NCBI GenBank assembly: GCA_963744875.1
Contig: CAVUVQ010000050.1
Coordinates: 77,330-141,329 of the forward strand
Source of the DNA: an uncultured Chloroflexia bacterium
GTDB taxonomy: Bacteria > Chloroflexota > Ktedonobacteria > Ktedonobacterales > Ktedonobacteraceae
Direction of reading: 5' to 3'
DNA: 64,000 bases
Numbering within the stretch: position 1 is the stretch's first letter; each line of letters begins with the position of its first letter. The notes under the pieces were generated by a model. It was not told the origin of the DNA, searched no databases, and was given only the letters and a program-made list of their open reading frames with translations. A program made the position numbers and the translations under genes. This document shows positions 9,919-60,375 of this stretch, piece after piece.

Positions 9919-10000
9919 GTAGGGGCGTCACCTTGCATGCGCTTGGTTCCAAGGAACATTGTCTATCAGGAACCCGACGCACGCAGGGTGACGCCCCTAC
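9919..10000. repeat. REP-like palindrome (GTAGGGGCGTCACC... type), 23-bp arms with 2 mismatches
   Basis: GTAGGGGCGTCACCTTGCATGCG (9919-9941) and CGCACGCAGGGTGACGCCCCTAC (9978-10000). It lies between convergent stops at 9904 and 10006. Confidence 0.85.
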
Positions 10001-10005
10001 ATTTA

Positions 10006-10326
10006 CTATTTGCGGTTGAACAAAACATTGATGATTATAACAGCGACATAAAACAAAACAAGTACAAAGATGAATGCCACAGCACCGATACTACCGACAT
10101 TTAAACCATACCCAAGCAATATCAAGCCCAGAGTCATAACCATGAGCATAGCCAGCGAGACGATTGCCAACGCTAAACGCTGACCCGTTGAGGGGGCTTT
10201 AAAGGACGCGTGATCCGAAATTTTCTGTCCATGTGAGCCTGTAGAATAGTCATAAGACATGGCAGTATAGCCAGTTCCTGGTGTACCGTGCTGGAACTCT
10301 CCATAGTTCATTTCCTGTTGAGACAT
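10006..10326 (-). CDS. Small membrane protein (106 aa, two C-terminal TM helices), unknown function
   Basis: AAAGGATGG precedes ATG 10326. The N-terminus MSQQEMNYGEFQHGTPGTGYTAMSYDYSTGSHGQ is followed by two hydrophobic helices. The longer ORF to 10485 runs into a palindromic repeat and was not used. Confidence 0.55.
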   Translation of the reverse strand: MSQQEMNYGEFQHGTPGTGYTAMSYDYSTGSHGQKISDHASFKAPSTGQRLALAIVSLAMLMVMTLGLILLGYGLNVGSIGAVAFIFVLVLFYVAVIIINVLFNRK

Positions 10327-10414
10327 GGCACCATCCTTTCGCTCTATGTAAGACAAAAACAAAATGAATGCTATCTTCTTCAATACGAGCAATGGAATGT
10401 AAAAGTTATAAAAA

Positions 10415-10522
10415 GCGACGGATTTGTGAACCGCGCCCCTACACCAGCGATGGAAGTCAGTACAAAAACAACCATTCATTTCCATCCCAATGGTGTAGGG
10501 GCGCGGTTCACAAATCCGTCGC
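10415..10522. repeat. 31-bp perfect inverted repeat with 46-nt loop; CCCCTAC/GTAGGGG motif faces the loop
   Basis: GCGACGGATTTGTGAACCGCGCCCCTACACC (10415-10445) and its exact reverse complement (10492-10522). The loop contains CCATTCAT, which also occurs in the loops of other repeat families here. Confidence 0.9.
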
Positions 10523-10542
10523 GTGGCACAACATTACCGACT

Positions 10543-11439
10543 TTATGCGCGTTGACCTGCCATCTGTTTCTGGAACTCTTTACGTCCCTGCTCATCGAGC
10601 GCAGCAAATTCTTCGTCGCTGAGCGAAACATTGACGGCATCCACATTTTCTTCCAGGTGCTTCACTTGACTGGTGCCAGGGATCGGCAATGTGACTGGAC
10701 TACGCTTAAGAATCCATGCCAACGCGACTCCACCGGGCGTTGTGTTTTGCTTTCTAGCAATTTCGTCGAGAAGCGAACCCGGTTGCGCCAGACTCCCCGA
10801 CGCGAGCGGGAACCAGGGGATAAAACCGATATTGGCGCGTGTACAGTACTCAAGAACATCTTCGCTCTGGCGCGTCACCAGATTATACATGTTCTGTACT
10901 GTGACTACAGGAAAGAACTTCTGTGCCGCCTCAATTTCTTCGGTATTGACTTCGCTCAGGCCAGCATGGCGAATAAGACCCTCCTGCTGCATCTGCTTGA
11001 TCATATCAAACTGCTCATCACGCGGCACCTTTGGATCAATGCGATGGAGTTGCCACAGGTCAATACGTTCAACACCCAACCGCCGCAAACTCATCAGAAC
11101 ACATTGGCGTAGATATTCAGGACGCCCCAATGGAGGCCAGACATTTGGTCCGTGACGGGTCAGGCCACCTTTGGTCGCTATAACCATACCTGTGTAGGGA
11201 TAAAGCGCCTCGTGAATCAAGTTTTCGCTCACCTCAGGACCATAACTATCGGCGGTATCAATAAAATTCACACCCAGTTCTGGCAACCGTTTCAATGTGC
11301 GCAGTGCTTCCTCACGATCATCTGGCTCACCCCAGATACCATTGCCCGTGATCCGCATAGCACCATAGCCAAGACGATTCACCGTCAGGTCTCCGCCGAT
11401 TTTGAACTGCCCACTGGCCGCTGCATTACCTTTATTCAT
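10543..11439 (-). CDS. Aldo/keto reductase family oxidoreductase
   Basis: 298 aa. Motifs [57 protein letters not shown] and LAWIL match the AKR fold signature pattern. Confidence 0.9.
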
Positions 11440-11686
11440 ATTCTTCTATCCTTTCCAATTCTGGTTGTTCTCTGCTTATTCAATCACCTCATAGAACCTT
11501 GCCTGAAAGCATAAGGAAATAAGAGGCGCTCTTTTTTGTCCATGAGAGAATTCAGACACAACATGGGGAGAAACTGCCTGGGCACGGCTCCTACCAAACA
11601 CTTACCCTTTATAACACGTTCGTCTCAGCTTCTTCGTTACTCCCAGTAAAGCACCACCTCAGACGAATGCAAAGACTCAATATGAT

Positions 11687-11729
11687 AGAATTAAATAGAG
11701 GATGTTTCTAACACCCTCTATTTAATTCT
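11687..11729 (+). promoter_or_regulatory. 15-bp perfect palindrome (13-nt spacer) 38 nt upstream of the gabT start codon
   Basis: AGAATTAAATAGAGG (11687-11701) and CCTCTATTTAATTCT (11715-11729). AT-rich arms with no T-run after them suggest an operator or RNA structure rather than a terminator. Confidence 0.35.
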
Positions 11730-11767
11730 AGCGAATCCTACCATCTACCCAACGCAGGAGGTACTTT

Positions 11768-13712: not shown

Positions 13713-13716
13713 GTGG

Positions 13717-14565: not shown

Positions 14566-14568
14566 AAG

Positions 14569-18804: not shown

Positions 18805-21159
18805 CTACCTGTAGACAGTCACGAGCAATGTATCCTCTTCGCTGATGAGCATGCTTAGCAAGATATGTTCGCGGTCCGTTAATTCGGTTGTGACTACACC
18901 TGCAGTTGCACGCCCCTTTTGTGGATACTGGCTCGTGGGCACTTTCTTGACCAGACCGCTATCTGTCACAACCAGGAAGTTCACCAGTCCCTCTTGTTGA
19001 CTGGAGAGGACGGATGCACTGATCACCGTCGCTCCCTTGCCCAGCGCCATCGCAGCGACTCCCTGACCAACACGTCCTTGAGCACGTAGCGTCTCGTCAC
19101 TGAAGCGCAGCGTCTGTCCGCTATTCGTCGTTACAAAGTATTCGCTCTGCCCATCAGAGATTAATGCGGCTACGATACTATCGCCATCCGCAAGCTTCAT
19201 ATCCTGTAAACCGTCAACATCTGCTGTCTTATACTCGCTAAGAGGCGATTTCTTGACCTTACCCAGTTTGCTGAAGGTGACCAGATAGCGATTCTCGTCG
19301 TACGCTTCGATGGGAAGAATTGCTACAACCTCTTCTCCCGCCGCTAATTCCAGGAGTTTGCGCAAAGGTTCGCCCTTCGTTGAGCGCGTGCCAGCCGGAA
19401 TGCGGTGCGTGGCGATCTGAAATACACGTCCACTGGAAGCAACACAGAGAAGGTAATCCTGCGAGGTGGTCGCGATAATCTGGCGCAGTTGCTCATCGCC
19501 ACGTACAGGAGTGTAAGTAGTATTACCGTTTTTGCCGCGCGGTTTGAATGTATCAGCAGGCAAGGCTTTGATTGACCCGGAACGCATGACGGCAATGGTT
19601 ATTTGCTCACGATCATGCAGCATCTCAACCACGGTGACAGGCGCGTGAAGCTGACCCTCAACATCAATGATGGTGCGACGCTCATCGCTGAACTGCTTGA
19701 TCAGTTGCTGCATCTCTTTTTTCAGCGAGGAGATCAGCGCTTTACGATCTGACAGCAGGCTTTCTAATTCGGCGATACGGCCTTGCAGATCCTCTTTTTC
19801 CTTCACATATTTGCCCGCATCCAGGCGTGTCACCTGGGCCAGCGTCATTGAGGCGATCACGTCAGATTGGATGGAGGTAAGAGAATACTTCGCCTCGATC
19901 TCTTTGCGAGCAGCGGCCCGATCTTCTGCTTGCTGGAATATCTTGACGATCTGCTCGGCATTGGCACTACCAATGATGAGGCCTTCGACAACGTGCAGGC
20001 GCTCACGAGCTTTGCGCAGATCAAACTCAGCTCTACGGGTGAGGATATCAATCTGATGGTTATTCCAATAGTTCAGCAATTCGAGCAGGCCAACTTGCTT
20101 CGGCTGACGAGCGGCCTGCATCGGCGAACCAAAGAGAAAGACCATCTGAAACGAAAGACCGATCTGCAGGTCTGTTTCGTTAAAAAGGAGCGAGAGCATC
20201 TGGGCTGCATCGGCATCTTTACGCAGGTCCAGAACGATGCGCATCCCCTTCTCGGTATCGCTTTCGTCGCGCACATCGGGCATCAAACCTTCGAGTTTAC
20301 GCGCATTAATGGCTTTGACGATCGAGGCTTTGATCCTGTCTCTCCCAATTGGGGGGATCTGGGTAATGATCAGCGAACGATTGCGCGGCGTCTCCTCCAG
20401 GCGCACTTCAGCACGCACAATGATGCGTCCCTTGCCATTGGTAAAGTAGTCTTTGATGCCATCAGTGCCGATAATGCGCCCACCCTGCGAGAAATCTGGT
20501 CCCTGGATATAACCCCTCAGTTGCTCAACGCTCATGTCAGGCTTATCCAATAGCGCAATGCAAGCACGTAACACCTCACCCAGATTATGCGGCGGGATAT
20601 TGGTAGAGAGACCTACGGCAATGCCACTCGATGGATTGACGATGGGTGGAATGCGCCCAGGTAGATAATCCGGCTCAACCACCTTCGGGTCCTGCTTATA
20701 GGTTGGATGCAGCGGGACGGTCTCTTTTTCCATATCGGCCATCAACGCATCAGCTAATGGCGAGAGACGCATCTCGGTATAACGATAGGCTGCAGGCGCA
20801 TCACCATCCTCACTGCCCATATTGCCCTGACCCTCGATCAATGGATAGCGCATCGTGAAAGGCTGAGCCATGCGCACCGCTGCATCATACACGGAGGTAT
20901 CACCGTGTGGATGATAGTTACCGAGAATCAGCCCCACGATCTCGGCACTCTTCACCGTTGGACGCGTGGGGAGATAGCGTGCCTCACGCATACCAGCCAG
21001 AATACGCCGCTGCACAGGTTTGAGACCATCACGAGCATCAGGCAGGGCACGATCAGTTACAACTGAGAGGCCATAGGTCGCAAATGCCTGCGATAGGATG
21101 ACCGAAAAATCTTCGCGATCAATGCCAGTTTCTACAATTTCTTCCGGTGTACGAGCCAT
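18805..21159 (-). CDS. gyrA: Type IIA topoisomerase subunit A (DNA gyrase GyrA, or ParC-like)
   Basis: 784 aa. DGLKPVQRRIL, NYHPHGDTSVYDAAVRMAQPF, active-site AAYRYTEMRL, and a six-blade-like C-terminal domain. The position of the GyrA box (QRRGGKG) reads KPRGKNG, so gyrase versus topo IV is not settled. Confidence 0.85.
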   Translation of the reverse strand: MARTPEEIVETGIDREDFSVILSQAFATYGLSVVTDRALPDARDGLKPVQRRILAGMREARYLPTRPTVKSAEIVGLILGNYHPHGDTSVYDAAVRMAQPFTMRYPLIEGQGNMGSEDGDAPAAYRYTEMRLSPLADALMADMEKETVPLHPTYKQDPKVVEPDYLPGRIPPIVNPSSGIAVGLSTNIPPHNLGEVLRACIALLDKPDMSVEQLRGYIQGPDFSQGGRIIGTDGIKDYFTNGKGRIIVRAEVRLEETPRNRSLIITQIPPIGRDRIKASIVKAINARKLEGLMPDVRDESDTEKGMRIVLDLRKDADAAQMLSLLFNETDLQIGLSFQMVFLFGSPMQAARQPKQVGLLELLNYWNNHQIDILTRRAEFDLRKARERLHVVEGLIIGSANAEQIVKIFQQAEDRAAARKEIEAKYSLTSIQSDVIASMTLAQVTRLDAGKYVKEKEDLQGRIAELESLLSDRKALISSLKKEMQQLIKQFSDERRTIIDVEGQLHAPVTVVEMLHDREQITIAVMRSGSIKALPADTFKPRGKNGNTTYTPVRGDEQLRQIIATTSQDYLLCVASSGRVFQIATHRIPAGTRSTKGEPLRKLLELAAGEEVVAILPIEAYDENRYLVTFSKLGKVKKSPLSEYKTADVDGLQDMKLADGDSIVAALISDGQSEYFVTTNSGQTLRFSDETLRAQGRVGQGVAAMALGKGATVISASVLSSQQEGLVNFLVVTDSGLVKKVPTSQYPQKGRATAGVVTTELTDREHILLSMLISEEDTLLVTVYR

Positions 21160-21162
21160 TAT

Positions 21163-23247
21163 CTATACATCCAATTCCTTAATTTTGCGCGAGTGCTCGG
21201 CCAGGAATAGACGGCGGCGCTCCGCGTTCTTGTCTTCCATCAATTCTGTCACCAACTTTGCCGCCAGGACGCCATCCTCCATGGTCACACGCTTCAACAC
21301 ACGACGAGCTGGATCAAGCGTCGTATCGCGCAGCTCTTTGGGGTTCATCTCACCCAGGCCTTTGAAGCGTTTGAACTCTAGATTCTGCGCATCAGCATGT
21401 GTATCCACAAACTGATCGCGCTTCTCATCATTCAGCAACCAGACCACTTTCCCCTTATACTTGACCGAATAGAGTGGGGGACAGGCGATATAGACATGGC
21501 CGCGCTCGATCAGATCGCTGAATTCTTGATGAAAGAGCGTCAGGAGCAGGCATTGAATATGCAACCCGTCCACGTCGGCATCGGTGGCGATGATGACGCG
21601 ATTAAATTTGAGTCTGCTGATATCGAAAACATCACGCGTGCCAGTGCCCAGAACGTTGATAATCGTGCGAATCTCTTCGTTTTCGACGATACTTTTCAGA
21701 TCCGCCTTCGCGACATTCAACGGCTTACCCTTGAGTTTGAGCACAGCCTGAAAATCGGAGAAGCGTCCCTGACCAGCACTTCCACCAGCGGAGTCGCCCT
21801 CAACAATGAAGAGTTCCGCTCGCGAAGCATCAGATGTGTTACAACGCAAGAACTTTTTGGAGAGCGTGGTATCAATCAACTCGCCATTTTTCTTGTTGCC
21901 AGCTCGCGCCAGTTCCTCGACCAGTTGCGCTTCGTTGCGGGCCTTCTGCATCTGCAAGATCTTCTTAAGCCACTCTTTGCCTGCAACGGGATTACTTTCA
22001 AACCAGTCCTTCAATCCTTCGTCGACGATCGAGCGCACCATACCCTCGACGGGTGCGTTGTTCAGGCGATCTTTGGTCTGGCCCTGGAATTGCGGATTGG
22101 TCAACTTGACCGAGATGACCACGTTCAAGCCTTGCTGAATCACTTCCGGCTTGAAGGCTTCTTTCTCACGGCTTTTGATCACGCTCAACTTGAGTGCGTA
22201 ATCATTCACGACTTTCGTCAAGGCCGCTTTAAAGCCCGTTTCATGCACGCCACCATCACGCGTGCGTACAGCATTGGCATAACTATACATCGTGATTTTA
22301 TAGCCACTGGTCGGCTGTAGGGCCACCTCAACGCGTACATCGTCCTTCTCTTTGGCAATGGCGATGACATGCTTGAAAAGTGGCGTGTTGGTGCTGGCCG
22401 TCAGTTCACGTACATAGTCGGGTAAGCCATCACGCGAATAAAAGAGACGCGTTACCTGCTCGTCGCGCTCGTCGTCCCAGGCGTCCAGATGGAATGAGAC
22501 GCCGCGATTGAGAAATGCAGAAGCGCTCAGGCGACTCTCAATGGCCGCCAGCTCATAATAGGCATCAGGATCAAAGATTGAGCGATCATACAACCAGCGC
22601 AACTGTGTACCATGCAACTTTGGATCACAGGCCACCACCTGATGAGGCATGGCAAAGCCACGACTGAACGTCTGGGTAAACTGCTGTCCATCCTTCCAGA
22701 TGGTTAATTCCAGCTTTTCTGAGAGAGCATTGATAACAGTTGAACCAACACCATGCAGGCCACCGGCTGTCTTATACGCACCCTCGGAGAACTTGCCACC
22801 CGAATGTGGGACCGTGAGAATTACCGTCGCCGCCGGAAGATAATCACCCTGGTAGAGCATCAGGTCAAAGGGCATACCTCGCCCCTCATCGCGTACAGTG
22901 ACCCAACCTTCACGATCAATACTCGCCCAGACATCCTTCCCAAAACCCGCCACCGCTTCATCGACGGCGTTATCCAGCGCCTCCCAGATGAGGTGAAGCA
23001 GGCCGGAGGTAGATGTCGAACCAATATACATTCCAGGACGATGACGAATCGCAGCAATCCCCTCCAGCACCTGAATATCAGCGGCTGAATAGGCTATATT
23101 TGTTTGTTTCTTTGCCTTCGGCACAGTTTTTACCCCCGATGGCTCAGAGCTTTTCTCACTAGCGTTATTCGTAAAAAGTGAAAGTTGTTCCTGAACGATA
23201 GCAGCTTCATCTTGCATGGGCAGGGGAACCTTCGAGGAACGGGACAT
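21163..23247 (-). CDS. gyrB: Type IIA topoisomerase subunit B (DNA gyrase GyrB, or ParE-like)
   Basis: 694 aa. LEGIAAIRHRPGMYIGST, GLHLIWEALDNAVDE, HSGGKF, GGLHGVGS, the Toprim motifs EGDSAGGSA and TDADVDGLHI, and GLGEMNP. A roughly 55-aa N-terminal extension precedes the ATPase domain. Its stop lies 3 nt before the subunit A start. Confidence 0.88.
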   Translation of the reverse strand: MSRSSKVPLPMQDEAAIVQEQLSLFTNNASEKSSEPSGVKTVPKAKKQTNIAYSAADIQVLEGIAAIRHRPGMYIGSTSTSGLLHLIWEALDNAVDEAVAGFGKDVWASIDREGWVTVRDEGRGMPFDLMLYQGDYLPAATVILTVPHSGGKFSEGAYKTAGGLHGVGSTVINALSEKLELTIWKDGQQFTQTFSRGFAMPHQVVACDPKLHGTQLRWLYDRSIFDPDAYYELAAIESRLSASAFLNRGVSFHLDAWDDERDEQVTRLFYSRDGLPDYVRELTASTNTPLFKHVIAIAKEKDDVRVEVALQPTSGYKITMYSYANAVRTRDGGVHETGFKAALTKVVNDYALKLSVIKSREKEAFKPEVIQQGLNVVISVKLTNPQFQGQTKDRLNNAPVEGMVRSIVDEGLKDWFESNPVAGKEWLKKILQMQKARNEAQLVEELARAGNKKNGELIDTTLSKKFLRCNTSDASRAELFIVEGDSAGGSAGQGRFSDFQAVLKLKGKPLNVAKADLKSIVENEEIRTIINVLGTGTRDVFDISRLKFNRVIIATDADVDGLHIQCLLLTLFHQEFSDLIERGHVYIACPPLYSVKYKGKVVWLLNDEKRDQFVDTHADAQNLEFKRFKGLGEMNPKELRDTTLDPARRVLKRVTMEDGVLAAKLVTELMEDKNAERRRLFLAEHSRKIKELDV

Positions 23248-26160: not shown

Positions 26161-26425
26161 ACATACAGATCCATGAACGAGTACGGATACACAAAAATTA
26201 GGACAAGAAACAGCTACGAAGCAAAATGCGCTATAATAGACTATGTATATTATAGCGATGGGCGTCATAATGCTGTTAAAAAAATACATGTGGGTATCGG
26301 TACGATGGTTCCAGGGACCGATCACTGTAGGGAAGCCATTTATTATTCCGGGGTGCGATGACGAACCGATATCCACATGTATTTTTTAAATTGCATAATG
26401 CAGCCCGTACCGTCTGAGGTCTAGT

Positions 26426-42214: not shown

Positions 42215-42364
42215 AGATATTCTCCCTCGGTTGCTCTCTCCAACAAGCAACTAGATGTACCATAAAAAGTATACGCCTGCCACAAAAAGCTGAGGTTTTC
42301 GTGGCGACTATACTGAAAACAGGAAAAGGGAAAAAGGTAGTTTTCTAGTAAGGAGCTGTGTTCT

Positions 42365-42871: not shown

Positions 42872-42961
42872 CCTACTACTCTGGCAAACATCATTGCACT
42901 CCTATTTGGAAGACTAATTGAGGGACCATCGCGTCTCTCCTGGTAGGGGCGTGTGCTTGCC

Positions 42962-43174: not shown

Positions 43175-43285
43175 GTGCTTGCCACCGCCCGCGTGCCAGA
43201 AAAGCATCGTGTATCGGCTCTGCGGGCGGTGGCAAGCACACGCCCCTACCCAGCCCTGAAAAGCGCAATGACCTTTGCCAGAGCA

Positions 43286-44243: not shown

Positions 44244-47200
44244 CTACATTTGGGATTCCAACGGCAACGCAAAGAAAAAGGTGCTCCCCTGACCAGGTTT
44301 ACTTTCCAGCCACATGCGACCCCCGTGCTGCTTCACGATGTTATGAGAGATATAAAGGCCCAGACCCAGACCATCAACTGACCCTTGCATATCGGCATGC
44401 ACACGGTAAAAACGTTCAAAGAGGTGCACCTGGTCTTCCGCCTCAATACCATCCCCCTCATCACACACTGCTACAACAACTTCGTTGCTGGCAGGTCGTC
44501 GTTCTACCGTTACCTCAATGGGGCTTCCAGCAGGGCTATACTTGTCAGCATTGCTCAGCAGGTTATTCAAAACCTGTTCTATGCGATCCTTATCCGCAGT
44601 TATCAGAATGGCTTCTTCACCAATTTGCACAGAGACAGGATGCTTTTGCAATGCTTGCTGATCAACAACGCTACGAACCAACTCCACTAAATCAACATTT
44701 TCCTGCTTATGCAACTCGAAGATTTCCCCCTGGAGACGAGTGACATCCAGCATGTCAGTGACAAGACTATTCATATTGCTAAGTTGGTGGAGAATACGCT
44801 CGATCTGGGTAAGGCTCTGGTCGAGATGCTGCTCACGCGTCTGGGCCTGACCAAGAGAAGTGGTATGCCTTATTAAAGTTCGCTGCAAAAGCTGGGTATT
44901 TGCCTGAATAGTAGTTAGAGGAGAACGTAACTCATGCGCTACTAATGAAAGAAAATCATCTCTCATCAGTTCAATCTGTTCGAGGTTTTTGCGTGCACTT
45001 ACCTGCTCCGTGATCTCCACAGCAGAAACGAGCATGTAGCGCACAGCATCCAATTCTGTATCGATAATGGCGGTGAGGTTATAATCCCAGACCGTTGCAG
45101 ATCCATCTCCCGCAAACGAAAGGGTAAGCTCCGGAATACGGAACGTAGCACGATCCTCGACCACTCTTTTCCAGGTCAGTATAGGATCTTCGTCGGGCAG
45201 CAGTAATGGCATCTCCTGCCAGGTATGACCTGGGACGCTATCTGGAGCTGCTTGATGCGCCTGGGCAACCAGTTCAAGATAACGCGGACTTCCCATCAGT
45301 AATGCCTCAGTCCGCCCATCATAAAGAGCCAATGCCACGGTTCGCGTATTAGCAAAGACCGTTTTGAGCTGGGCGAGTTCCTCCTGGAGTTCCTGCGCAT
45401 GCTGCTCCGTCTCATCTGACGCGTAGATGATCACGCCATCCACGCGGCCTGAAGCGTTATGAGAAGGGACAAGCGTATACGAAAAATAGCCTTCCTTTTG
45501 CTCATCTGATACCTTACTTTGTGTCCCAGGTATAATAGTACGAATACGCGATAACGTTTTTGGCAATTCTTTCACGTAAACTTCACGCGCAAGGTGCATT
45601 AAAGCAAAACCTGCCTTCGGTTCCCAGAACAGATTGATCACGTCCTCTAACGCGTGCCCCTGGACACTCGCTTCTTCCAATAAACGCGCATAGCGCGGAT
45701 TGTATGCTTCGACCACCAGAGCAGGACCACGCAAAACAAGAATATAAAATGGTGCGAACTCCACCATCTCGGAGAGGCGTACATGCTCATTCTCCAGGGA
45801 GGTCGTCAGTTCTTGCAGTTCACTGGTGCGAGCACGTAGTTCATCGTTGGTCGTCTCTAACTCCTCATTGGTGGCCTGCAACTCCTCGTTATTTGTTTCC
45901 AGCTCCTCGTTGGTCGCTTGCAACTCCTCGTTGGTCGTTTCAAACTCCTCAATACTTGCCTGTAACTCCTCGTGTGTTAACATGAGTTCCTCGTTGGCAA
46001 CTTGCAACTCTTCGTTGGCATCCATAAGCTCTTTATTCATATCGCTCAGGCGTTTGTTAGCTGTACTCAGCTCTTGCATCAACTGCAACTGTTCACTGTG
46101 GACACTCTCCAATTGGCGACGGATATGGACCTGATCAGTTACATCGCTGATACTGATCGCTGCAAGATCCGGTAAACTGGCATCCAGTTGCATTACGGCG
46201 ATAGAGAGACTCACAAAGCGTCCATTGCCACCCGCGGATACTTCAAGTTCTACTTCTGGCAAAGTAATAGAATTGCGCTCACGGAAAACCGTATCGATAG
46301 CCGCACGCGTCCCATGATAAGGAATACCATGCACCGTGTGCAAAAAATCCTGATCTATAGCAACATCACGTAGACCAAGCAAACGACGAGCAGAATTGTT
46401 GGCAGTCAAGATATGGTAGGTACGATCGATAATTATGACACCAAGAGGAAGAAAACGCAGCAGAAGCTCGTTGAAACGACGCAGTTGCCCCAACTCCAAC
46501 GAGAGAGATAACGGCTCCTGCTGATCCGCATGTGTTCTTCCTGATGATCGCAGTGAGCGATCCATAACGTTCCTCTCCTGCGAAGGTGCTTTTTTCTCCG
46601 AAAGACTACGTTGATTGGCTGAAGGAAGCGCATTACCAATACAGCGATATATTTTCCAGAGCTTATTCTCCAGCATGTAAAATAACTGCGCAGGGCGTAC
46701 CGTTTCCGCTTTCCCTAGAAAGAGAAATCCATTGGGATTGAGAGAAAAGGCAAACTGATTGAGCACATAATCCTGTAGTTCGGCTGTAAAATAGATCAAA
46801 ACATTGCGGCAGAGCACCAGGTCTATATGCGGAAAAGGGGCACTATGGCTAAGATCTTGCCGTCCAAATATGACCATTTGCCGCAGCGTTTTTGAAATGC
46901 GATAGCCATGATCGACCCGTTCAAAGAACCGCTCCTGATAATCACGTGGCACTCCTTTGAGCAGATTCTCGGAATAGATCCCACGCCGGGCGAAGGTAAT
47001 TGCAGCTTCATCTAGATCTGTTGCAAAGATCTTGATACTCCATTCGGGCAGTTCCACACTCAGAAGATCTGTGAGCAGCATTGCAAGTGAATAAGGTTCT
47101 TCCCCTGTTGCACAGCCTGCCGTCCAGAAGCGCAAGACGTGATCACGCTGGCGGCCATCCGCAATTAAAGCAGGCAAAATATCACTTCTAAGATAGGCAA

Positions 47201-48059
47201 AGGCATCAGCATCACGAAAAAACTGCGTGACATTGATGAGAAAAGCCTTGACTAGCTCGCCTACCTCCTCAGGATGAAGCCTCAGATAATTTGCGTATTC
47301 CTGGATAGTCTTATTATGCGTCACAGTCATGCGTCGACCGACACGACGCAGAATAGTCGACGTTTTGTAGGGATGAAAATCAATACTCGCCTGTTGACTC
47401 ACCAACTCAAGAATATCGTGCAAAACATCCTCGGTTCGCTCCTCTGTCAGCGGAATATTCACGCCATTTAGCAATTCATACAGCAACGGGCCAATACGTT
47501 CAATATTCACTTCAAAATCGATGATGGTGGGAGGAAGTGCTAGCGGCATAGAGGGATAACGCGCTGTCTGAGGATCCTGCACAATAACGGTTCCACCTGC
47601 ATTTTTTACGTCGACCGCGCCCGCAGCCCCATCCGACCCGGAACCAGTCAAAATAACCGCAATCAGGTGCTCTCCATAGGATTCAGCAGCAGAGGAGAGC
47701 AGGGTATCGACAGAGGGACGGGGCCGCTTCTTGCGATCCTCCATCAAATAGACATGGTGATCCCTTATAGAAACATGACGATTTGCAGGTACGACATAAA
47801 TTCGACCCGGATACAATTTTGTATTCTCTTGCACAATCTCAACGACCAGGTTGGTACGTTTTCGCAATATAATATCAAGTGAACTGGGACGATTGGGGTC
47901 AAGATGTTGTGCCAGTACCAGGGGCGCTGGAAAGTCTTCAGGCAAGGTACTCACCAGAATGGAGAGCGCTTCAATACCTCCTGCTGAAGAGCCAACTACG
48001 ATCAGATCACTCGATTGAACAGTATCTTGCTCAATAGTATCTTGCTCAATAGTATCCAC
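44244..48059 (-). CDS. CheB methylesterase-CheR methyltransferase fusion joined to PAS, heptad coiled coil, PAS, HisKA and HATPase_c (1271 aa)
   Basis: CheB domain: VVGSSAGGIEAL...LTGSGSDGA.G...K.AGG.VIVQDP. CheR domain: FFRD...F..L...ILP......R.WTAGCATGEEPYSLAML...IFATD.D..A...AR.G.Y ... CRNVLIYF. Eleven heptads of xxEELxx follow (residues about 680-756). The kinase core has VAHELRSPLTT, LLSNADKYSP, DEGDGI and GLGLGLYI. Confidence 0.9.
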   Translation of the reverse strand: MDTIEQDTIEQDTVQSSDLIVVGSSAGGIEALSILVSTLPEDFPAPLVLAQHLDPNRPSSLDIILRKRTNLVVEIVQENTKLYPGRIYVVPANRHVSIRDHHVYLMEDRKKRPRPSVDTLLSSAAESYGEHLIAVILTGSGSDGAAGAVDVKNAGGTVIVQDPQTARYPSMPLALPPTIIDFEVNIERIGPLLYELLNGVNIPLTEERTEDVLHDILELVSQQASIDFHPYKTSTILRRVGRRMTVTHNKTIQEYANYLRLHPEEVGELVKAFLINVTQFFRDADAFAYLRSDILPALIADGRQRDHVLRFWTAGCATGEEPYSLAMLLTDLLSVELPEWSIKIFATDLDEAAITFARRGIYSENLLKGVPRDYQERFFERVDHGYRISKTLRQMVIFGRQDLSHSAPFPHIDLVLCRNVLIYFTAELQDYVLNQFAFSLNPNGFLFLGKAETVRPAQLFYMLENKLWKIYRCIGNALPSANQRSLSEKKAPSQERNVMDRSLRSSGRTHADQQEPLSLSLELGQLRRFNELLLRFLPLGVIIIDRTYHILTANNSARRLLGLRDVAIDQDFLHTVHGIPYHGTRAAIDTVFRERNSITLPEVELEVSAGGNGRFVSLSIAVMQLDASLPDLAAISISDVTDQVHIRRQLESVHSEQLQLMQELSTANKRLSDMNKELMDANEELQVANEELMLTHEELQASIEEFETTNEELQATNEELETNNEELQATNEELETTNDELRARTSELQELTTSLENEHVRLSEMVEFAPFYILVLRGPALVVEAYNPRYARLLEEASVQGHALEDVINLFWEPKAGFALMHLAREVYVKELPKTLSRIRTIIPGTQSKVSDEQKEGYFSYTLVPSHNASGRVDGVIIYASDETEQHAQELQEELAQLKTVFANTRTVALALYDGRTEALLMGSPRYLELVAQAHQAAPDSVPGHTWQEMPLLLPDEDPILTWKRVVEDRATFRIPELTLSFAGDGSATVWDYNLTAIIDTELDAVRYMLVSAVEITEQVSARKNLEQIELMRDDFLSLVAHELRSPLTTIQANTQLLQRTLIRHTTSLGQAQTREQHLDQSLTQIERILHQLSNMNSLVTDMLDVTRLQGEIFELHKQENVDLVELVRSVVDQQALQKHPVSVQIGEEAILITADKDRIEQVLNNLLSNADKYSPAGSPIEVTVERRPASNEVVVAVCDEGDGIEAEDQVHLFERFYRVHADMQGSVDGLGLGLYISHNIVKQHGGRMWLESKPGQGSTFFFALPLESQM

Positions 48060-48248
48060 AGGATTCCACTCTCTTCTCTATTCATCACGTAAAAAAGTGA
48101 GCGGGCCGCATCTTCTTCGATCCGCTCTCAACATATACCATTACTATAGACTTCTTTGATACTACTGTCAATATATTTTTGAGCCCTCGTTCCGCCTGGA
48201 GCAAACATTGAGGCCGTTGGTAGGGCGTCACCCAATAGCGTTCAATGC

Positions 48249-49301: not shown

Positions 49302-49630
49302 GAAACAGCATAATTAATTATCTTATCAGGTACACGCTTGAACCCTGCAAATCGTCGCACCACTCTCCCCATCAGACACATCTCCCACCGAAAAAGTCAT
49401 CCCTATCATGAACTCTTCCACAAACGGTTTCCTTAGAATTCCTTAGAATTTACTGTAAAAAGGAAGGTTTTATCGAAAATCCCTTGCTCATTCCACCAAT
49501 GTGCGCTACAATATACAAAATATCGTTACCTATCTCTACCATATGCCCAACCTGGAGGATTTATAGTAGTAACTAAGAGTATAACTTCAAAACAGGCGCA
49601 ATGGAAGTATTGTTCGTCAGAAAGGGCTTT

Positions 49631-51328
49631 ATGCAAACGCCAATTAGCGAATATATTCGACAGTTACGACGACAACGAGGAATGACCCAGACCGAATTGG
49701 GTGGAGAACACTTCTCAAAATCCTATGTTAGCGCCGTTGAACGTGAGAAAATCGTTCCATCTTATGCTGCTCTACGCTTCTTTGCCGAGCAACTCGATCA
49801 GTCGGCTGACTACTTTCAAGAACTTGCTGAACAACCTGTACCTCTTCCACAAAACACGACTCAGCTCGTCTCCTCCTTTGAGAATGAGGACGATGATGAG
49901 CTAGATGAGAGCATTGAACTGCTGGACATGGTCCTGGAGGGTTCAGAATTACAACATACTTCTTTCTCACAGAAGGTATCTACACTTCCTCTGGAAGCAC
50001 TGATGCGCCTTCCATTTCAGAAGCAGGCTCGCTATTGCTTGATGAAAGGATTAATCTTGCAAGAACAGGGAAATCTTGCGGATGCCCAATCTCTTCTGGA
50101 ACGCGCCCTCGTCCTTTCCCCCACAAAAAACCAATCCGCTATTCTCGATGCCCTGGGGACGAATTACTCCCTCGCCTTCAGCTATCAAACGGCATCAAGC
50201 TATCATCAACGTGCATTGCACCTCTTAGACCTCGATGAAACTGATAGGAAAACCTCTGCCCTTTTCCTAAAAATAAAGCTTCACTGTGGAGATGACCAGC
50301 GAGCACTCAATAGACACGCAGAGGCACTTGAACACTATGAGCATGCACGCCAATCTTTACGCTCAACCAGTAATATGGACATAGCAGCACAGGTCTATAT
50401 AGGGTTGGGCTACTGTACTTATGCATCAGTCTACCAGAACCCGACAGCTACAAAGGTCTCTTATGAAGAAAAGGAACGTCGGCTACAACAGGCTGCGACC
50501 TTCCTCCTCCAAAGCCGTACCCTCTACCAGATCAGTAGTAACCGCACTGGCGAAGCGAAGGCTCGCCTGCTGCACGCCAGCGTTTTGCTTAGCATCTGTT
50601 CACTACGTCGCCATGCTGCATTGGAACGTGCACAGGATGGAGAGGCTATACGATCTTTGCAATGTGCCACCCTACTCGATGAAGCAGGAGAGCAATGCCG
50701 CCAGGTACTTCTGGTCTGGAACGAGACAATGCTCATTAGCAATCAGTCCTCCTCTGACCTGGAAATTGTGTTATATACGGCTCTCTCTACCCTCGTCAGC
50801 ACCTATATACAACGTGCAGTCATAGCTCGTCTGGAAGGGTATAACGATACAGCCCTGCATGACCGCGCATATGCAGCCCATCTTTGCCAGCAGATCCTCG
50901 ATACATTAACAAAACCTGAGCTTCTACATTCACTAACACGCGATGCTCTTGCGCCGGAAATCAGGGGAATATACAGCAGTCAGGCATTACCTCGCCTGCC
51001 AGATCTGGATAAAAACGTGCCGCCCCATCATCCCATGAGCATAGCAATCATATTCTCGGCAGCAGGAGAAGTTGCTGAAGAATTAGGACGCTTCGCCACA
51101 AATTCAGTCTATGCCGCCACTTGTTATGCCCATGCCAATACATGTTTCAAAACTTCCTTACGGATAGACCGCCAATCTACGTTCTCAAAAGAACATGATG
51201 CAAGCTTTCTCATGCGTCGTTGTCAACACTACATCACACTTATCGAAGAACGTCTTCAGTCCACAACTGAAAACACAGAAGAGACCTGCAAGATGATACT
51301 TGATCTCTTCAAAGATACCGTGTATTAA
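49631..51328 (+). CDS. XRE-family helix-turn-helix regulator fused to a long TPR-like domain (paralog of 23703-25040)
   Basis: ISEYIRQLRRQRGMTQTELGGEHFSKSYVSAVEREKIVPSYAALRFFAEQL is followed by about 490 aa of helical repeats. I preferred ATG 49631 (AAAGGG upstream); the ORF track opens at 49601. Confidence 0.75.
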   Translation: MQTPISEYIRQLRRQRGMTQTELGGEHFSKSYVSAVEREKIVPSYAALRFFAEQLDQSADYFQELAEQPVPLPQNTTQLVSSFENEDDDELDESIELLDMVLEGSELQHTSFSQKVSTLPLEALMRLPFQKQARYCLMKGLILQEQGNLADAQSLLERALVLSPTKNQSAILDALGTNYSLAFSYQTASSYHQRALHLLDLDETDRKTSALFLKIKLHCGDDQRALNRHAEALEHYEHARQSLRSTSNMDIAAQVYIGLGYCTYASVYQNPTATKVSYEEKERRLQQAATFLLQSRTLYQISSNRTGEAKARLLHASVLLSICSLRRHAALERAQDGEAIRSLQCATLLDEAGEQCRQVLLVWNETMLISNQSSSDLEIVLYTALSTLVSTYIQRAVIARLEGYNDTALHDRAYAAHLCQQILDTLTKPELLHSLTRDALAPEIRGIYSSQALPRLPDLDKNVPPHHPMSIAIIFSAAGEVAEELGRFATNSVYAATCYAHANTCFKTSLRIDRQSTFSKEHDASFLMRRCQHYITLIEERLQSTTENTEETCKMILDLFKDTVY

Positions 51329-51329
51329 A

Positions 51330-51420
51330 CGGTAGGGACCCGCTTGCATCGCGTCCGCCATTCATGGAATCGTGCCCCAGGTTGATAAATCACGGACGCG
51401 ATGCAAGCAGGTCCCTACCG
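51330..51420. repeat. REP-like hairpin, family A copy 2, immediately after a stop codon and followed by T5
   Basis: CGGTAGGGACCCGCTTGCATCGCGTCCG (51330-51357) pairs with CGGACGCGATGCAAGCAGGTCCCTACCG (51393-51420) with 1 mismatch. TTTTT follows at 51421-51425. The element starts 2 nt after the TAA at 51326-51328. Confidence 0.9.
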
Positions 51421-51552
51421 TTTTTCGCGCGTTTCTCCATTTTTGACGAATTCCTCTTGCACCGATCCTTGCCTTTATAAAATGCATCTTGTATACTTAA
51501 AGCAGATTTCCATAAACTTTTTCCATATTCTCCCAGAAGGAAGGAACAGCAA

Positions 51553-55986: not shown

Positions 55987-56085
55987 GTAGGGACTCGGTT
56001 CGACCGCGTCCGCGATTTATCGATCATTCCGTGTGGGAAACGCACCAACCGATGAATCGCGGACGCGGTCGAACCGGGTCCCTAC
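55987..56085. repeat. REP-like hairpin, family B (36-bp arms, 2 mismatches) overlapping the 3' end of a gene
   Basis: GTAGGGACTCGGTTCGACCGCGTCCGCGATTTATCG (55987-56022) pairs with CGATGAATCGCGGACGCGGTCGAACCGGGTCCCTAC (56050-56085). Confidence 0.9.
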
Positions 56086-56607
56086 TTGATGCCGCCAGTA
56101 AAGGATACCGATAATTAACACCACAAGTGCAAGCAGATCAAAGACGATCTCATAGGGAATATCATTGCGGCAAAAACCAAGGATCGTATCACTGCGACTG
56201 GCCGGCGTCAGGCACACCAGTTCGTTGACCTGGTGCAGATGGAGGATGGCGTGCTGAATAATACCATCATAGAGATTAAAGCCTCCCGCTCCAATGATGA
56301 TGGCCGCGACGATCAATTCGCGGAATGGTGAGATCCATGTGTCACGACCACGCCAGAGACGTAAGGCTCCCCATAACAACAAAAGCGTACTGAAGGCATG
56401 AAAGAGTCCATCGCTGAGAATACGTCCATGCTGATCAGTATTCCAGTAAAACGTATGCCACTGCAATAACTGATGAAGCAGCGTCTCATCCAGAAATGCC
56501 ATGATGCCAACACCTAACAGGATGCCCGTCCAGAAAGCCGAGCGCACAGTCTTGCGTGACGCGACATCAATCTTTGCTGTCTGTGTATGTTCACCTTCTA
56601 CCTTCAT
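56017..56607 (-). CDS. DUF2243-like membrane protein; the last roughly 23 codons and the stop lie inside a REP-like element
   Basis: GAGGAG precedes ATG 56607. FLDETLLHQLLQWH ... GGFNLYDGIIQHAILHLHQV resembles DUF2243. The tail QVGTRFDRVRDSSVGAFPTRNDR is encoded by 56085-56017, within the repeat. Confidence 0.6.
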   Translation of the reverse strand: MKVEGEHTQTAKIDVASRKTVRSAFWTGILLGVGIMAFLDETLLHQLLQWHTFYWNTDQHGRILSDGLFHAFSTLLLLWGALRLWRGRDTWISPFRELIVAAIIIGAGGFNLYDGIIQHAILHLHQVNELVCLTPASRSDTILGFCRNDIPYEIVFDLLALVVLIIGILYWRHQVGTRFDRVRDSSVGAFPTRNDR

Positions 56608-56693
56608 AATCTCCTCACTATTTGTTGCTACAAAATCACGACACGAAAGGAAATCGCGATAGTCAAACGTCATTGGACACCTTTTCTGGTGGA

Positions 56694-56809
56694 GCCCGGG
56701 TTTGTTCGCTCCGCTCACTGCACCCCTACATTGGCATGGGGAGTCGCCCTGGCAAAGGAAGTGATGATCCAATGTAGGGGTGCAGTGAGCGGAGCGAACA
56801 AACCCGGGC
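56694..56809. repeat. 41-bp perfect inverted repeat with 34-nt loop; CCCCTAC/GTAGGGG faces the loop
   Basis: GCCCGGGTTTGTTCGCTCCGCTCACTGCACCCCTACATTGG (56694-56734) and its exact complement (56769-56809). Confidence 0.9.
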
Positions 56810-56882
56810 CTTCCCGACAATCCGTTGCCTCAGCAAACCCATTGCCTTTGCCAAAAAATGTCCAATGATGTTTGACAGAGTG

Positions 56883-56929
56883 GTAGGGACCCGGTTCACC
56901 GCGTCCGCGATTTATCGACCTGGCCCTAC
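56883..56929. repeat. Truncated family B REP-like element (left arm plus terminal CCCTAC only)
   Basis: GTAGGGACCCGGTTCACCGCGTCCGCGATTTATCGACC, then tggCCCTAC. It closely matches the left arm of 55987-56022 but has no right arm. Confidence 0.75.
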
Positions 56930-56950
56930 CCATAACGGATGCATCAATCA

Positions 56951-58120: not shown

Positions 58121-58144
58121 GTACAAAGCTCCTTCCAGGCAGAT

Positions 58145-58951
58145 TTATTTTTTGCGTTTTTGTTTACTTAGATATTGGCCCTCGCCCACAGGCTGCTCGG
58201 AGAGTGTGGGGATCTCCCCTGCCTCCATCAGTTGTTTGAAACGGCGCAGGTTTTCGCGTACAAATTGTTCAGGAATACGACCGAGCAACTTTGCCAGGCT
58301 GACACCCGGCGCTCCAGCAGGTTGATAGTAGTAAATTTCAGAGATGACCGTCGTCCCTTTGGTATCGGGCGCGGGCACAAAGCGGACGCGACCCGCCTGA
58401 CCGGCGAGAGGAACACCACTAACGGCCTTCCAGGCAAGCGATTGATTGGGGAGATCCTCGGTAATCTCGGAGTCCCATTCGATATTTTGGCCCGTAGGCA
58501 ACTGGGCAACCCAGTGAGAGGTCTTATCATCAAGCACCTGGACGGACTGGACCATCTGCATATATTGTGGTGCCATCTCTAGATCGCGCCAGAAGCGATA
58601 GAGATCTTCAGGCGTCCCCTCAATCGTCATTGCTCGTCGCACCGCAATGCCACTATTCCCAGGTAGAGCCTCAAGGGTTGCAGGGTGATCGGAAACAGTA
58701 TTCACATCGAGAAAGCGATAGAGATAATCCTGACCCGTAATGCCGCGCCGAATCAGCTCGCCGCCAAGAGCTGCCAGCACGATGCCACGTACGCTAAAGC
58801 GTCTCAGCCCATACGTAACCAGGCTGCCACCTCCAATAACTGAGAGGAGGCGTTCTAACTGCCCGACATTGATGCGATCGGCCCGGCGGGGATCATGTCG
58901 GGCATCAGTCATATATGTCGGCGTAGTGGATGTCGTTGGTGTTGATACCAT
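58145..58951 (-). CDS. DUF2892 (YgaP-like membrane) N-terminal segment fused to an SRPBCC/cyclase-dehydrase domain
   Basis: NVGQLERLLSVIGGGSLVTYGLRRFSVRGIVLAALGGELIRRGITG is followed by an SRPBCC-like fold (LYRFWRDLE..P.YM....SV...D...SHW.A). Confidence 0.65.
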   Translation of the reverse strand: MVSTPTTSTTPTYMTDARHDPRRADRINVGQLERLLSVIGGGSLVTYGLRRFSVRGIVLAALGGELIRRGITGQDYLYRFLDVNTVSDHPATLEALPGNSGIAVRRAMTIEGTPEDLYRFWRDLEMAPQYMQMVQSVQVLDDKTSHWVAQLPTGQNIEWDSEITEDLPNQSLAWKAVSGVPLAGQAGRVRFVPAPDTKGTTVISEIYYYQPAGAPGVSLAKLLGRIPEQFVRENLRRFKQLMEAGEIPTLSEQPVGEGQYLSKQKRKK

Positions 58952-59062
58952 CTTTCTTGCTCCTTCAAAGCTTCCTGAACATACATTCTTGAGAAAAGTT
59001 GTATCTCAAACATTCAGTGGTGACTTCAAAAGTAGCACGTTTATGCAAAACAGAATGTAACT

Positions 59063-59311
59063 GTGCCAAAGGACGATATATCCTTGCAAATGCCTTACAA
59101 AATAGCCCCTCTTTCGTGTACTATTAGCACTATACGTAGCAAACAGGCGCACATCTCTGAAACGCTAGTCTCCTATGGGCAGTGGCTCTTCTGGATCGGT
59201 GGAATTGGTATACTCTCACTTATCGTGGGGATCATCCTCTTCTTTGTTGGTCAGAGAACGGTCAAAAAAGACGTGAGCGATGAGGAGATTATCGCACAGG
59301 TAACAACATAA
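59063..59311 (+). CDS. Hypothetical small protein with one TM helix (weak call)
   Basis: 82-aa ORF with a non-ATG start and no clear RBS. It contains the TM segment WLFWIGGIGILSLIVGIILFFVG. It could be non-coding. Confidence 0.25.
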   Translation: MPKDDISLQMPYKIAPLSCTISTIRSKQAHISETLVSYGQWLFWIGGIGILSLIVGIILFFVGQRTVKKDVSDEEIIAQVTT

Positions 59312-59314
59312 CAC

Positions 59315-59400
59315 GTAGAGGCCAGATTGATCGCGCCCACGGGTGTGTGATGTAATGAATGGTTTCACACACCCGTGGGCGCGATCAATCTGGCCTCTAC
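59315..59400. repeat. REP-like hairpin, family C (36-bp perfect arms, 14-nt loop)
   Basis: GTAGAGGCCAGATTGATCGCGCCCACGGGTGTGTGA (59315-59350) and its exact complement (59365-59400). The terminal CTAC provides the TAG stop (59397-59399) of the minus-strand TetR gene. Confidence 0.92.
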
Positions 59401-60005
59401 CGTTCCAGTCCCGTAGCGAAAATATCCTCGAACATAGCCGCAATGCTCTGCGGCGTGTAGTTCCCAGCCGCCCGATACCATTGAGAGAGCGAATTGCACA
59501 TACCAAGCAGGCCAAAGGCAACCATCTTCGCATCCATATCCGCCTTGAAAACACCCGCCCGCTGACCTTCCTCAATGATACGTTCAAAGTAGCGCTCGTA
59601 GACTTTTCTACGTAGTAATATCTCTTTCGCAAACGGACCCGTGAGATGATGTTGCTCACGGAAGAAGACCGTCATGGCTGGTGAGCGATCGGCTGCTACG
59701 GTCGTCTGATGCTCTATGGCTCGTCGCAGCTTCTCTTGCGGAGCCGTATCAGCTTCGACGATGTGTCGCAACGGCTCTTCACTGACCGTTAAGACCGTCA
59801 GGTAGATCAGGCGCAGGATCTCTTCTTTGTTTTTGACATGATAGTAAAGCGCACCCTTCGTCGCCCCCAATACATCTGCGATATCTTCAAGACTGGTTGC
59901 TCCAAATCCCTTCTGGGCAAACAATCTGGCGGCGGCAGCCACAATCGCCTGTTGGGTGATACGTTCGCGCTTGACGGGCTTATTCGGGAATGCAGCGGGC
60001 GTCAT
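59397..60005 (-). CDS. TetR/AcrR family transcriptional regulator
   Basis: The N-terminal HTH is ITQQAIVAAAARLFAQKGFGATSLEDIADVLGATKGALYYHVKNKEEIL. 202 aa. Confidence 0.9.
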   Translation of the reverse strand: MTPAAFPNKPVKRERITQQAIVAAAARLFAQKGFGATSLEDIADVLGATKGALYYHVKNKEEILRLIYLTVLTVSEEPLRHIVEADTAPQEKLRRAIEHQTTVAADRSPAMTVFFREQHHLTGPFAKEILLRRKVYERYFERIIEEGQRAGVFKADMDAKMVAFGLLGMCNSLSQWYRAAGNYTPQSIAAMFEDIFATGLER

Positions 60006-60284
60006 AAATGTGGCCCCTACGATCGCGTCCTTATCTTTGTGATCTTCGATTTTGGGTGCTCCATTTCAACAAATATATTTGATCATGTCCATATGATTTC
60101 TACCCATTGTTTAAATTAATGGTAATCGTAAATTGGCGTTTTGTCAATAGGATAACCCTTGCTTTTTCTCTTTCCATAAGGTATAAACATACTAAGCGTT
60201 CAAAAACTCGTAGATAAATGCAGGACGAGAACAGGATAGGAACATCAATTTGCATGCTCTAGATATCTACAAATGTTCGTAAAA

Positions 60285-60375
60285 CGGTAGGGACCCGATT
60301 GTATCGCGTCCGCCATTCATGGGATAGGACCCTGGATCGATCAATCACGGACGCGATACAATCGGGTCCCTACCG
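60285..60375. repeat. REP-like hairpin, family A copy 3 (28-bp perfect arms)
   Basis: CGGTAGGGACCCGATTGTATCGCGTCCG (60285-60312) and CGGACGCGATACAATCGGGTCCCTACCG (60348-60375). It differs from copy 1 by a compensated C->T / G->A pair. Confidence 0.9.

Follow-up and report, generated by a model that had tools for sequence, protein, structure and literature searches.

The 64-kb stretch of DNA considered here (the window, G000:C50:77330-141329, where G000 is this Ktedonobacteraceae genome; feature coordinates given below without a contig are window positions) carries a population of GTAGGG-headed palindromes. These are very probably repetitive extragenic palindromes (REPs) of the GTAG type, with inverted dimers that resemble REPINs (REP doublets forming hairpins), and would form part of a REP/RAYT system, or “REPtron”, in which REPs are coupled with REP-associated tyrosine transposases (RAYTs). 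Such a system had been proposed in a sequence-only reading of the window, and the genome as a whole agrees with it in three respects: the copies are many, a Y1 enzyme exists, and the GTAG holds its position in the repeats.

The long palindrome is not the repeated unit. That unit is a module of about 25 nt, composed of an unpaired 5′ GTAG and an imperfect hairpin (for example GTAG-GGAC·C·CGAT-TGC-ATCG·C·GTCC), the stem of which comprises 8–9 bp and was modeled as eight pairs with one conserved mismatch. When 54 distinct modules from nine subfamilies were aligned and the pairs counted for this hairpin model, 89.6% of the cells were paired, as compared to 26–49% with the 3′ partner slid by 1–3 columns, and 71 cells were changed on both sides as compared to 25 ± 5 in shuffles, none of which (0/500) reached 71. 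Changes on both sides occur at five of the eight pairs (with counts such as AU 29/GC 22; GC 29/CG 18/UA 5; AU 32/GC 13/CG 7), and the hairpin is preserved by compensatory changes between subfamilies. The conservation of the head was assessed in seven families by locating the copies through the hairpin core alone, with the GTAG not imposed, and G, T, A, and G were found at a fixed offset in 80–100% of the core-located copies, as the sequence-only reading had anticipated. Upstream of the GTAG, conservation drops toward background, the exception being AAAACG, which is conserved in family 0. This module architecture is the defining architecture of GTAG-type REPs.

Within the window, GTAGGGRC occurs 19 times, an approximately 10-fold enrichment over the mean of 1.84 in 100 dinucleotide-preserving shuffles, which contained at most 6 and never (0/100) reached 19. 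The 22 family-assigned REP modules of the window compare with a genome average of about 8 per 64 kb, and the abundance is genome-wide. The assembly (7.32 Mb, 55 contigs, 49.7% GC) is a draft of 84.6% estimated completeness with apparent frameshifts; a hairpin scan of it, with a minimum arm length of 18 nt, returned 666 hairpins; arms of 40 nt or more occur in 201 of these, and GTAG[AG]G is present in 178 of the 201. Clustering of the 34 nt from each GTAG by average linkage, with subfamilies of at least four members, yielded about 955 modules in at least 25 subfamilies, the largest of which hold 274, 107, 87, 77, and 52, counts which required GTAG[AG]G and so miss degenerate copies, and which depend on family boundaries that vary with the clustering threshold. 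Average linkage was adopted because single-linkage clustering fused 1062 modules into one network. The exact family 0 pattern, when sought in a 185,579-species genome collection, matched only Ktedonobacteraceae, Ktedonosporobacter, and uncultured Chloroflexia metagenome-assembled genomes (MAGs).

The modules are arranged as 200 head-out dimers with the GTAG outside (HH; median spacing 87 bp), 74 head-in dimers with the GTAG facing the loop (TT; 49 bp), 99 tandem neighbors (HT; 80 bp), and 293 singletons, and tandem arrays of at least six modules adjoin RAYT genes. The orientation is family-specific, dimers of families 0, 1, 2, and 4 being head-out and those of families 3, 6, 7, 8, 10, and 11 head-in. 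The two arms of a dimer are closer to each other than to random members of their family (0.6 vs 5.2 differences in family 2 and 0.3 vs 3.2 in family 3), with 0/1000 partner permutations reaching the observed value; the near-identity of the arms is therefore homogeneity from arm to arm within a dimer and not a sign of recent copying. In family 0, the tails of the two arms are distinct (left …GTCCGCC, right …GTCCGTG), which suggests copying as a unit. With gene calls made by a crude longest-open-reading-frame heuristic, 84% of the modules lie outside open reading frames (ORFs) in a genome that is 82% covered by them, and REPs occupy 12.9% of the convergent, 7.5% of the tandem, and 5.7% of the divergent intergenic regions, so that the enrichment between convergent genes, a check that the sequence-only reading had put forward, is present.

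RAYT genes and the REP families of relatives

Exactly two RAYT loci were found in this genome, by tblastn with the RAYT-like genes of three relatives (G004, G006, and G018) and by a hidden Markov model built from 123 homologues and run on the six-frame translation. Locus 1 (G000:C20:373746-374297, minus strand) is an intact frame of 184 aa flanked by modules of family 11/3: those at 373645/373694 make up a head-in dimer to one side, and three more (374423, 374609, and 374658) lie to the other. Locus 2 (G000:C9:282178-282750, plus strand) is distributed over three frames by two frameshifts and has six tandem family 0 modules and two more upstream and five downstream. The REP arrays that bracket each locus accordingly belong to one of the two REP families with the most copies. 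The sequence-only reading had seen no RAYT, which is true of the window; the genome encodes these two REP-flanked loci of the HUH-Y1 type. A whole-genome scan with the Pfam profile Y1_Tnp (PF01797) had given no match, and the conclusion that there is no Y1 gene was discarded as a false negative on the strength of the tblastn and custom-model searches.

The frameshifts of locus 2 are both located within runs of G (GGGGCGGGCC and CAGGGGGAT), and an intact homologue of 185 aa aligns colinearly with the read-through at 92% identity. Locus 2 could accordingly be a real pseudogene of very recent origin, but an assembly error in the homopolymers is just as likely. Several gene pairs of the window also look frame-split (4619-5266/5226-5696, 54234-55589/55492-55914, and 43246-43755/43286-44272), and homopolymer errors may be common in the assembly and explain its completeness estimate.

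Judged from their sequences, both proteins are divergent relatives of RAYTs. Their sole NCBIfam match is NF047646 (REP_Tyr_transpos, REP-associated tyrosine transposase), with E-values of 1e-13 and 9e-15; a RAYT of the same genus reaches 76.8 bits with this model and also matches NF033573 weakly. The HxH and YxxxNP residues are invariant in 33–44 homologues, and H89, H91, and Y160 (numbering of the C20 protein), invariant in 33 homologues, align with the HMH and YIxxNP of 4ER8, the structure of E. coli TnpAREP. 4ER8 is also the best PDB match (E = 1e-4) of a profile of 33 sequences, which was needed to reach it, since a single-sequence phmmer search against the PDB returned noise only. An AlphaFold2 (AF2) model of a 97% identical homologue (pLDDT 86.8, pTM 0.81) had exclusively IS200/IS605 TnpA structures or 4ER8 among its top 29 Foldseek matches in the PDB, with 4ER8 third by E-value and lowest in root-mean-square deviation (4.3 Å, TMq 0.50). 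Many database homologues carry the JGI label “REP element-mobilizing transposase RayT”.

The predicted HUH-Y1 fold is shared with the transposases of the IS200/IS605 insertion sequences, and it could be argued that the palindromes are orphan ends or derivatives of such elements (palindrome-associated transposable elements), moved by a conventional TnpA and possibly linked to TnpB. TnpA genes scoring 100–160 bits with PF01797 are indeed present in 34 of 41 relatives, where a scan with this profile returned mostly high-scoring IS200/IS605 TnpA and a few weak matches of about 38–47 bits (ORFs of 180–209 aa), three of which (in G004, G006, and G018) are RAYT-like genes bracketed by GTAGGG modules. 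This genome, however, has no PF01797 match, the RAYT-like genes are its only Y1 genes, both proteins match the REP-associated model only, and the genes have symmetric REP arrays around them in place of tnpB and dissimilar left and right ends (adjacency to TnpB was not searched), so that this origin appears very unlikely.

The RAYT profile matches 73 of the 151 sampled genomes of the class (E <= 1e-15), with 1–6 copies each, and the positive genomes belong nearly all to the same family. At 16 of the 20 RAYT loci fetched from relatives, repeated GTAGGG modules lie near the gene, mostly on both sides, and each locus has its own REP stem sequence. For the genus, the REP family expanded in a genome corresponds to the RAYT resident there, a correlation that covers four genomes. 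Family 0, with 200 copies in G000, has 14 in G003, 1 in G004, and 4 in G005; families 3/7/11 have 100, 6, 16, and 36 copies in the same order; family 12 has 13, 163, 3, and 13; and family 4 has 28, 52, 75, and 82, all of these families being absent (zero copies) from G001 and G002. The families flanking the RAYT genes are 0 and 3/11 in G000, 12 in G003 (C69), and 4 in G004 (C10). This tracking of the resident RAYT by family size is the strongest indirect evidence for amplification driven by RAYTs. In the short-read MAG G003, many contigs start 2–10 bases before a family 4 REP, and the repeats thus appear to break assemblies.

The same comparison bears on the possibility that the repeats are hairpins with a host function (terminators, stabilizers of mRNA 3′ ends, or sites for protein binding), selected as such and multiplied by recombination or duplication, with the link to RAYTs being incidental or historical and the REP population dead. 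In line with this are the enrichment at gene 3′ ends and between convergent genes, the G-T wobble in the stem (13 GU at pair 5-25), the mostly less than 95% identity of whole dimers to their nearest neighbor, the frameshift of one RAYT, and the several families that have no RAYT in this genome. It does not account as readily for family copy numbers that vary 10- to 100-fold within the genus in step with the resident RAYT, nor for REP content that differs at orthologous sites; furthermore, one RAYT is intact with invariant catalytic residues, the other reads through two G-runs colinearly with its intact homologue, and exaptation and mobility can coexist. A host function as the sole explanation is thus considered improbable.

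Mobility, age, and a nested element

The mechanism envisaged for the REP/RAYT system is modeled on the TnpAREP proteins of E. coli, Stenotrophomonas, and Marinomonas, which recognize single-stranded REPs, for which the GTAG is essential, and which cleave next to the hairpin, at a dinucleotide that is CT or CA (PMC3333891, PMC3479197, PMC8266576). By analogy, the RAYT would bind the single-stranded REP hairpin with the GTAG as its recognition and guide sequence, following which the catalytic tyrosine would cut nearby and the DNA would be rejoined. This would place copies of REPs or REP dimers in intergenic DNA elsewhere, probably where the replication fork exposes single-stranded DNA. The arms of a dimer would be kept near-identical by selection for a long hairpin or by template-switch correction, either being conjectural. 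A second vehicle is a 226-bp miniature inverted-repeat transposable element (MITE) with terminal inverted repeats (TIRs) and target-site duplications (TSDs), which has a family 0 dimer as cargo and takes REP hairpins as its insertion sites.

Differences between orthologous loci are consistent with mobility. Neither the REP at 39928 nor the 410-bp cluster at 42943-43250 is present at the orthologous intergenic sites of G003, G004, and G005, around which the coding DNA is 76–85% identical, and one orthologous site in a sister species carries a different REP. Around the 187 head-out dimers tested for TSDs, direct-repeat identity was at chance (0–6/187) at every offset and length tried. The palindrome often continues beyond the GTAG heads: in family 4, 11 of 14 head-out dimers (in G000:C13, C10, C6, and others, e.g., C13:102492-102598) have a perfect extension of at least 4 nt (4–13 nt), the sequence of which is different in each copy. 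This suggests insertion into pre-existing hairpins or an inverted duplication of the target, and REPs inside small palindromes have also been described in Thermomicrobium roseum by Di Nocera et al. (PMC3733652).

The family 15 head-out dimer of the window shows the 226-bp element in place. The 5′ part of its left arm (42943-42961, plus strand) is cut by a 213-bp MITE copy (42962-43174), and the remainder of that arm resumes at 43175, followed by the loop and then the right arm up to 43249 (head 43249, minus strand). The MITE copy, which interrupts the left hairpin, has perfect 13-bp TIRs (CATTGACTCCAAC/GTTGGAGTCAATG) and a 9-bp target duplication (GTGCTTGCC), and its cargo is a family 0 (GTAGGGACCCGATTGCATCGCGTCC) head-out dimer at 43031-43118, which an inverted-repeat scan recovered as the palindrome 43016-43133 with 49-nt arms, 86% complementary. 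There is thus REP sequence at 42942, where the sequence-only reading placed a separate palindrome; it is the left arm of the split dimer that ends at 43249. About 36 near-full-length copies (e.g., G000:C11:39684-39908 and G000:C48:108359-108583) exist genome-wide, with a consensus of 226 bp. In 22 of the 26 listed copies, the flanks are recognizably a REP module, several REP families being hit, and the target is a fixed place in the REP hairpin with direct duplications of 9–10 bp; about one-quarter of the copies have inverted instead of direct flanks. The MITE encloses 55 of the 106 family 0 head-out dimers, and no autonomous partner was found in the assembly by searches for long TIR pairs and by end-only BLAST. 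The mosaic relationship that the sequence-only reading saw between families is in part the look of this element nested in REPs.

Given a genuine element of this kind, it could be asked whether the GTAGGG palindromes as a whole are ordinary MITEs, their arms being the TIRs of a DDE transposase whose insertion makes TSDs. The roughly 36 copies carrying a family 0 dimer speak for it, and some REP copies have spread in this way. Against it stand the chance-level flanks of the 187 head-out dimers and the occurrence of the same modules as single, head-in, head-out, and tandem units, unlike TIR elements; moreover, the arms taken singly are conserved, covarying hairpins, and the Y1 HUH genes are the only genes consistently flanked by these repeats. 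As a general explanation, it is therefore regarded as highly improbable.

A further reading, which we hold to be possible but less likely than not to be borne out, is that two mobilization systems are coupled in this genome, with the MITE inserting specifically into REP hairpins and bringing a REP dimer as its cargo; added to this, family 4 dimers may form through template-switch inverted duplication at the insertion site. Each jump of the MITE may destroy one REP and seed two, and this route may have made about half of the largest family, and the copy-specific extensions around family 4 dimers would fit template-switch formation rather than copying of a pre-formed REPIN. Either route, if real, would propagate REPs in a way that the descriptions of proteobacterial systems do not include.

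Several observations weigh against a RAYT-driven REP system. The RAYT beside the largest REP family is frameshifted in this assembly, and both proteins score below curated cut-offs, with 51.5 and 54.9 bits for NF047646 (cut-off 80 bits) and 20.7 bits for PF01797 (cut-off 23 bits), for which the whole-genome scan came back empty. Two RAYT loci stand against at least eight REP super-families, and families 4, 12, and 6/8 have no cognate RAYT in the 55-contig, 84.6%-complete assembly. About half of the family 0 dimers could owe their spread to the MITE transposase and not to a RAYT. For most whole dimers, the nearest copy is less than 95% identical (among the 51 family 0 dimers not carried by the MITE, only 8 reach 95% with any relative), and the loops of head-in dimers are unrelated between copies, both of which fit old or locally formed dimers better than a REPIN burst. 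It also has to be noted that the case for transposition is drawn from the genome sequence. The state of the system was originally put as active or recently active; the 10- to 100-fold differences in family size between sister species and the differing orthologous sites speak weakly for this, and very recent activity is doubtful because of the low identity between dimers.

Relation to known systems

A super-family of GTAG-tagged REPs, with 24 published families, has been described from Proteobacteria, Cyanobacteria, the PVC group, and Chloroflexi, the last represented by GTAG-23 of T. roseum (Di Nocera, De Gregorio and Rocco 2013, PMC3733652). That report describes GTAG-tagged stem-loops forming HH, TT, and HT dimers and clusters, GTAG repeats on the flanks of RAYT genes, and a bias to convergent and unidirectional intergenic regions. 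The repeats described here share with that super-family the unpaired terminal GTAG beside a short stem-loop, the many subfamilies per genome, the occurrence as singletons, HH, TT, and HT dimers, and clusters, the bias to unidirectional and convergent intergenic regions, the REP-flanked RAYTs, and the location of some elements (here family 4) inside small host palindromes. They differ in belonging to the class Ktedonobacteria, apparently in their stem sequences, in a head extended to GTAGGG(A/G)C, in an unusually large diversity (at least 25 subfamilies, about 955 units), and in an HH or TT habit that is strictly family-specific.

As in the REPtrons and TnpAREP proteins characterized to date (Ton-Hoang 2012, PMC3333891; Messing 2012, PMC3479197; Corneloup 2021, PMC8266576), the protein is of the HUH-Y1 type with about 185 aa, an HxH motif, and a C-terminal tyrosine in YIxxNP; the gene is bracketed by inverted REPs, and a genome holds several REPtrons with different REPs. 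Unlike TnpAREP, the proteins described here are only about 16% identical to 4ER8 and score under the cut-offs curated by NCBIfam and Pfam.

The REPINs of Pseudomonas fluorescens SBW25, reportedly described by Bertels and Rainey in 2011, are said to consist of two inverted REPs forming a long hairpin. The dimers of this genome would resemble them in that pairing and in arms that co-vary within a dimer, and would differ from them in loops that, for most families, show little conservation or no relationship from copy to copy, in having few near-identical copies, and in the frequency of head-in dimers. Insertion sequences that target REPs (IS1397, ISKpn1, and ISPpu9/10) were reportedly discussed by Tobes and Pareja in 2006. 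The MITE appears to be like them in inserting at a fixed place in the REP hairpin, in several families, with a 9–10-bp duplication; it would differ from them in that it is non-autonomous, carries a REP dimer, and has inverted flanks in about one-quarter of its copies.

Literature searches on REPs, palindromes, or RAYTs of Ktedonobacteria found nothing relevant. The view that no such system had been described for this kind of genome therefore holds for the Ktedonobacteria and not for the phylum, in which T. roseum has GTAG REPs (PMC3733652). What is described here is a classical REP/RAYT system in a lineage without an earlier description, and not a new kind of element. A system known almost exclusively from work on Proteobacteria is thereby extended to the Ktedonobacteraceae, which have large genomes and are actinomycete-like, and the match between REP family and resident RAYT in the genus offers a natural comparative system for the co-evolution of RAYT specificity and REP populations. 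In practical terms, standard Y1_Tnp profile scans miss these RAYTs, and the REPs produce spurious ORFs and probably break short-read assemblies.

Palindromes and neighboring features of the window

All palindromes listed in the sequence-only reading were recovered by the inverted-repeat scan, with arms of 25–49 nt that are 84–100% complementary, and the half-sites at 56883 and (degenerate) 48220 are also there. Its description of the arms as often perfect was overstated, with perfect arms in only two of the nine listed hairpins, and the GTAGGG(G/A)C head ascribed to all copies is degenerate on the left of the 39928 copy. Placement in intergenic DNA or at gene 3′ ends applies with the qualification that one palindrome lies between divergent genes and another overlaps the last codons of a gene (60281-60379 and 55987-56085, below).

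The head-out dimers belong to families 0, 1, and 4, apart from the split family 15 dimer. That of family 4 (GTAGGGGCGTCACCTTGCGTGCGCCC type; 9919-10000, arms 32 nt, 84% complementary) starts 15 nt past the stop of an HhH gene (9287-9904). The first family 1 dimer (GTAGGGGCCyGATTGATCGCGCCC; 39928-40001, recovered as the palindrome 39928-39995 with 25-nt arms, 92% complementary) lies between the convergent genes of a MurJ-like protein (39058-39921) and a CHASE3 kinase (39998-42250); the second, with GTAGAG heads (59315-59400, arms 36 nt, 100% complementary), stands at the 3′ end of a TetR gene (59397-60005, minus strand). A family 0 dimer at 51332-51418 (palindrome 51327-51423, arms 39 nt, 90% complementary) begins 4 nt past the stop of an HTH-TPR gene (49601-51328), and another at 60287-60373 (palindrome 60281-60379, arms 40 nt, 90% complementary) separates the divergent TetR (59397-60005, minus strand) and PaaA-like (60429-61391, plus strand) genes. 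A family 0 variant with an GGTTCGACC core (55987-56085, arms 36 nt, 94% complementary) overlaps with its right arm the last codons, at the 3′ end, of a minus-strand DUF2243 gene.

Head-in dimers are represented by family 8 (10402-10535, heads at 10442 on the minus and 10495 on the plus strand, arms 45 nt, 87% complementary), directly downstream of an aldo/keto reductase gene (10543-11439, minus strand), and by family 7 (GTAGGGGTGCAGTGAGCGGAGCGAACAAACCCGGGC; 56694-56809, arms 41 nt, 100% complementary). A single family 13 module (GTAGGGACCCGGTTCACCGCGTCC; 56883-56929, plus strand) constitutes the half-site at 56883, and the weak half-site at 48220-48240 (plus strand, GTAGGGCGTCACCC) has no family assignment. 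Two modules are additional to the earlier list, one of family 12 (GTAGGGAAGCCATTTATTATTCC; 26327-26352, plus strand) and one of family 22 (GTAGGGGCCACATTTATGACGCCC; 59995-60020, minus strand). The family 12 module is enclosed by an AT-rich palindrome with 45-nt arms (26260-26406), which is unrelated to the REP families and may be another nested element.

REP clusters create or lengthen spurious long ORFs in the window (56017-56820 and 10006-10485 on the minus strand, 42989-43300 on the plus strand), and in the 267-aa frame containing DUF2243, the domain occupies residues 99–244, the upstream extension crossing the 56694-56809 dimer. The genome-wide hairpin scan also caught a CRISPR-like array with the repeat GTCGTCCCCTTCGCGAAGGGGACTGAAAT (G000:C13:~19890-21000), and a cluster of palindromic repeats (AGTTTGGGTCGCTCGACCCAAACT) spaced about 90–140 bp apart, unrelated to REPs, lies at G000:C36:356336-357117. 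Among the other genes of the window are neighboring GyrB-like and GyrA-like genes (18805-23247, minus strand), representing topoisomerase IV or a second gyrase pair, and many multi-domain sensor kinases, such as the CheB-CheR-PAS-HK fusion at 44244-48059.

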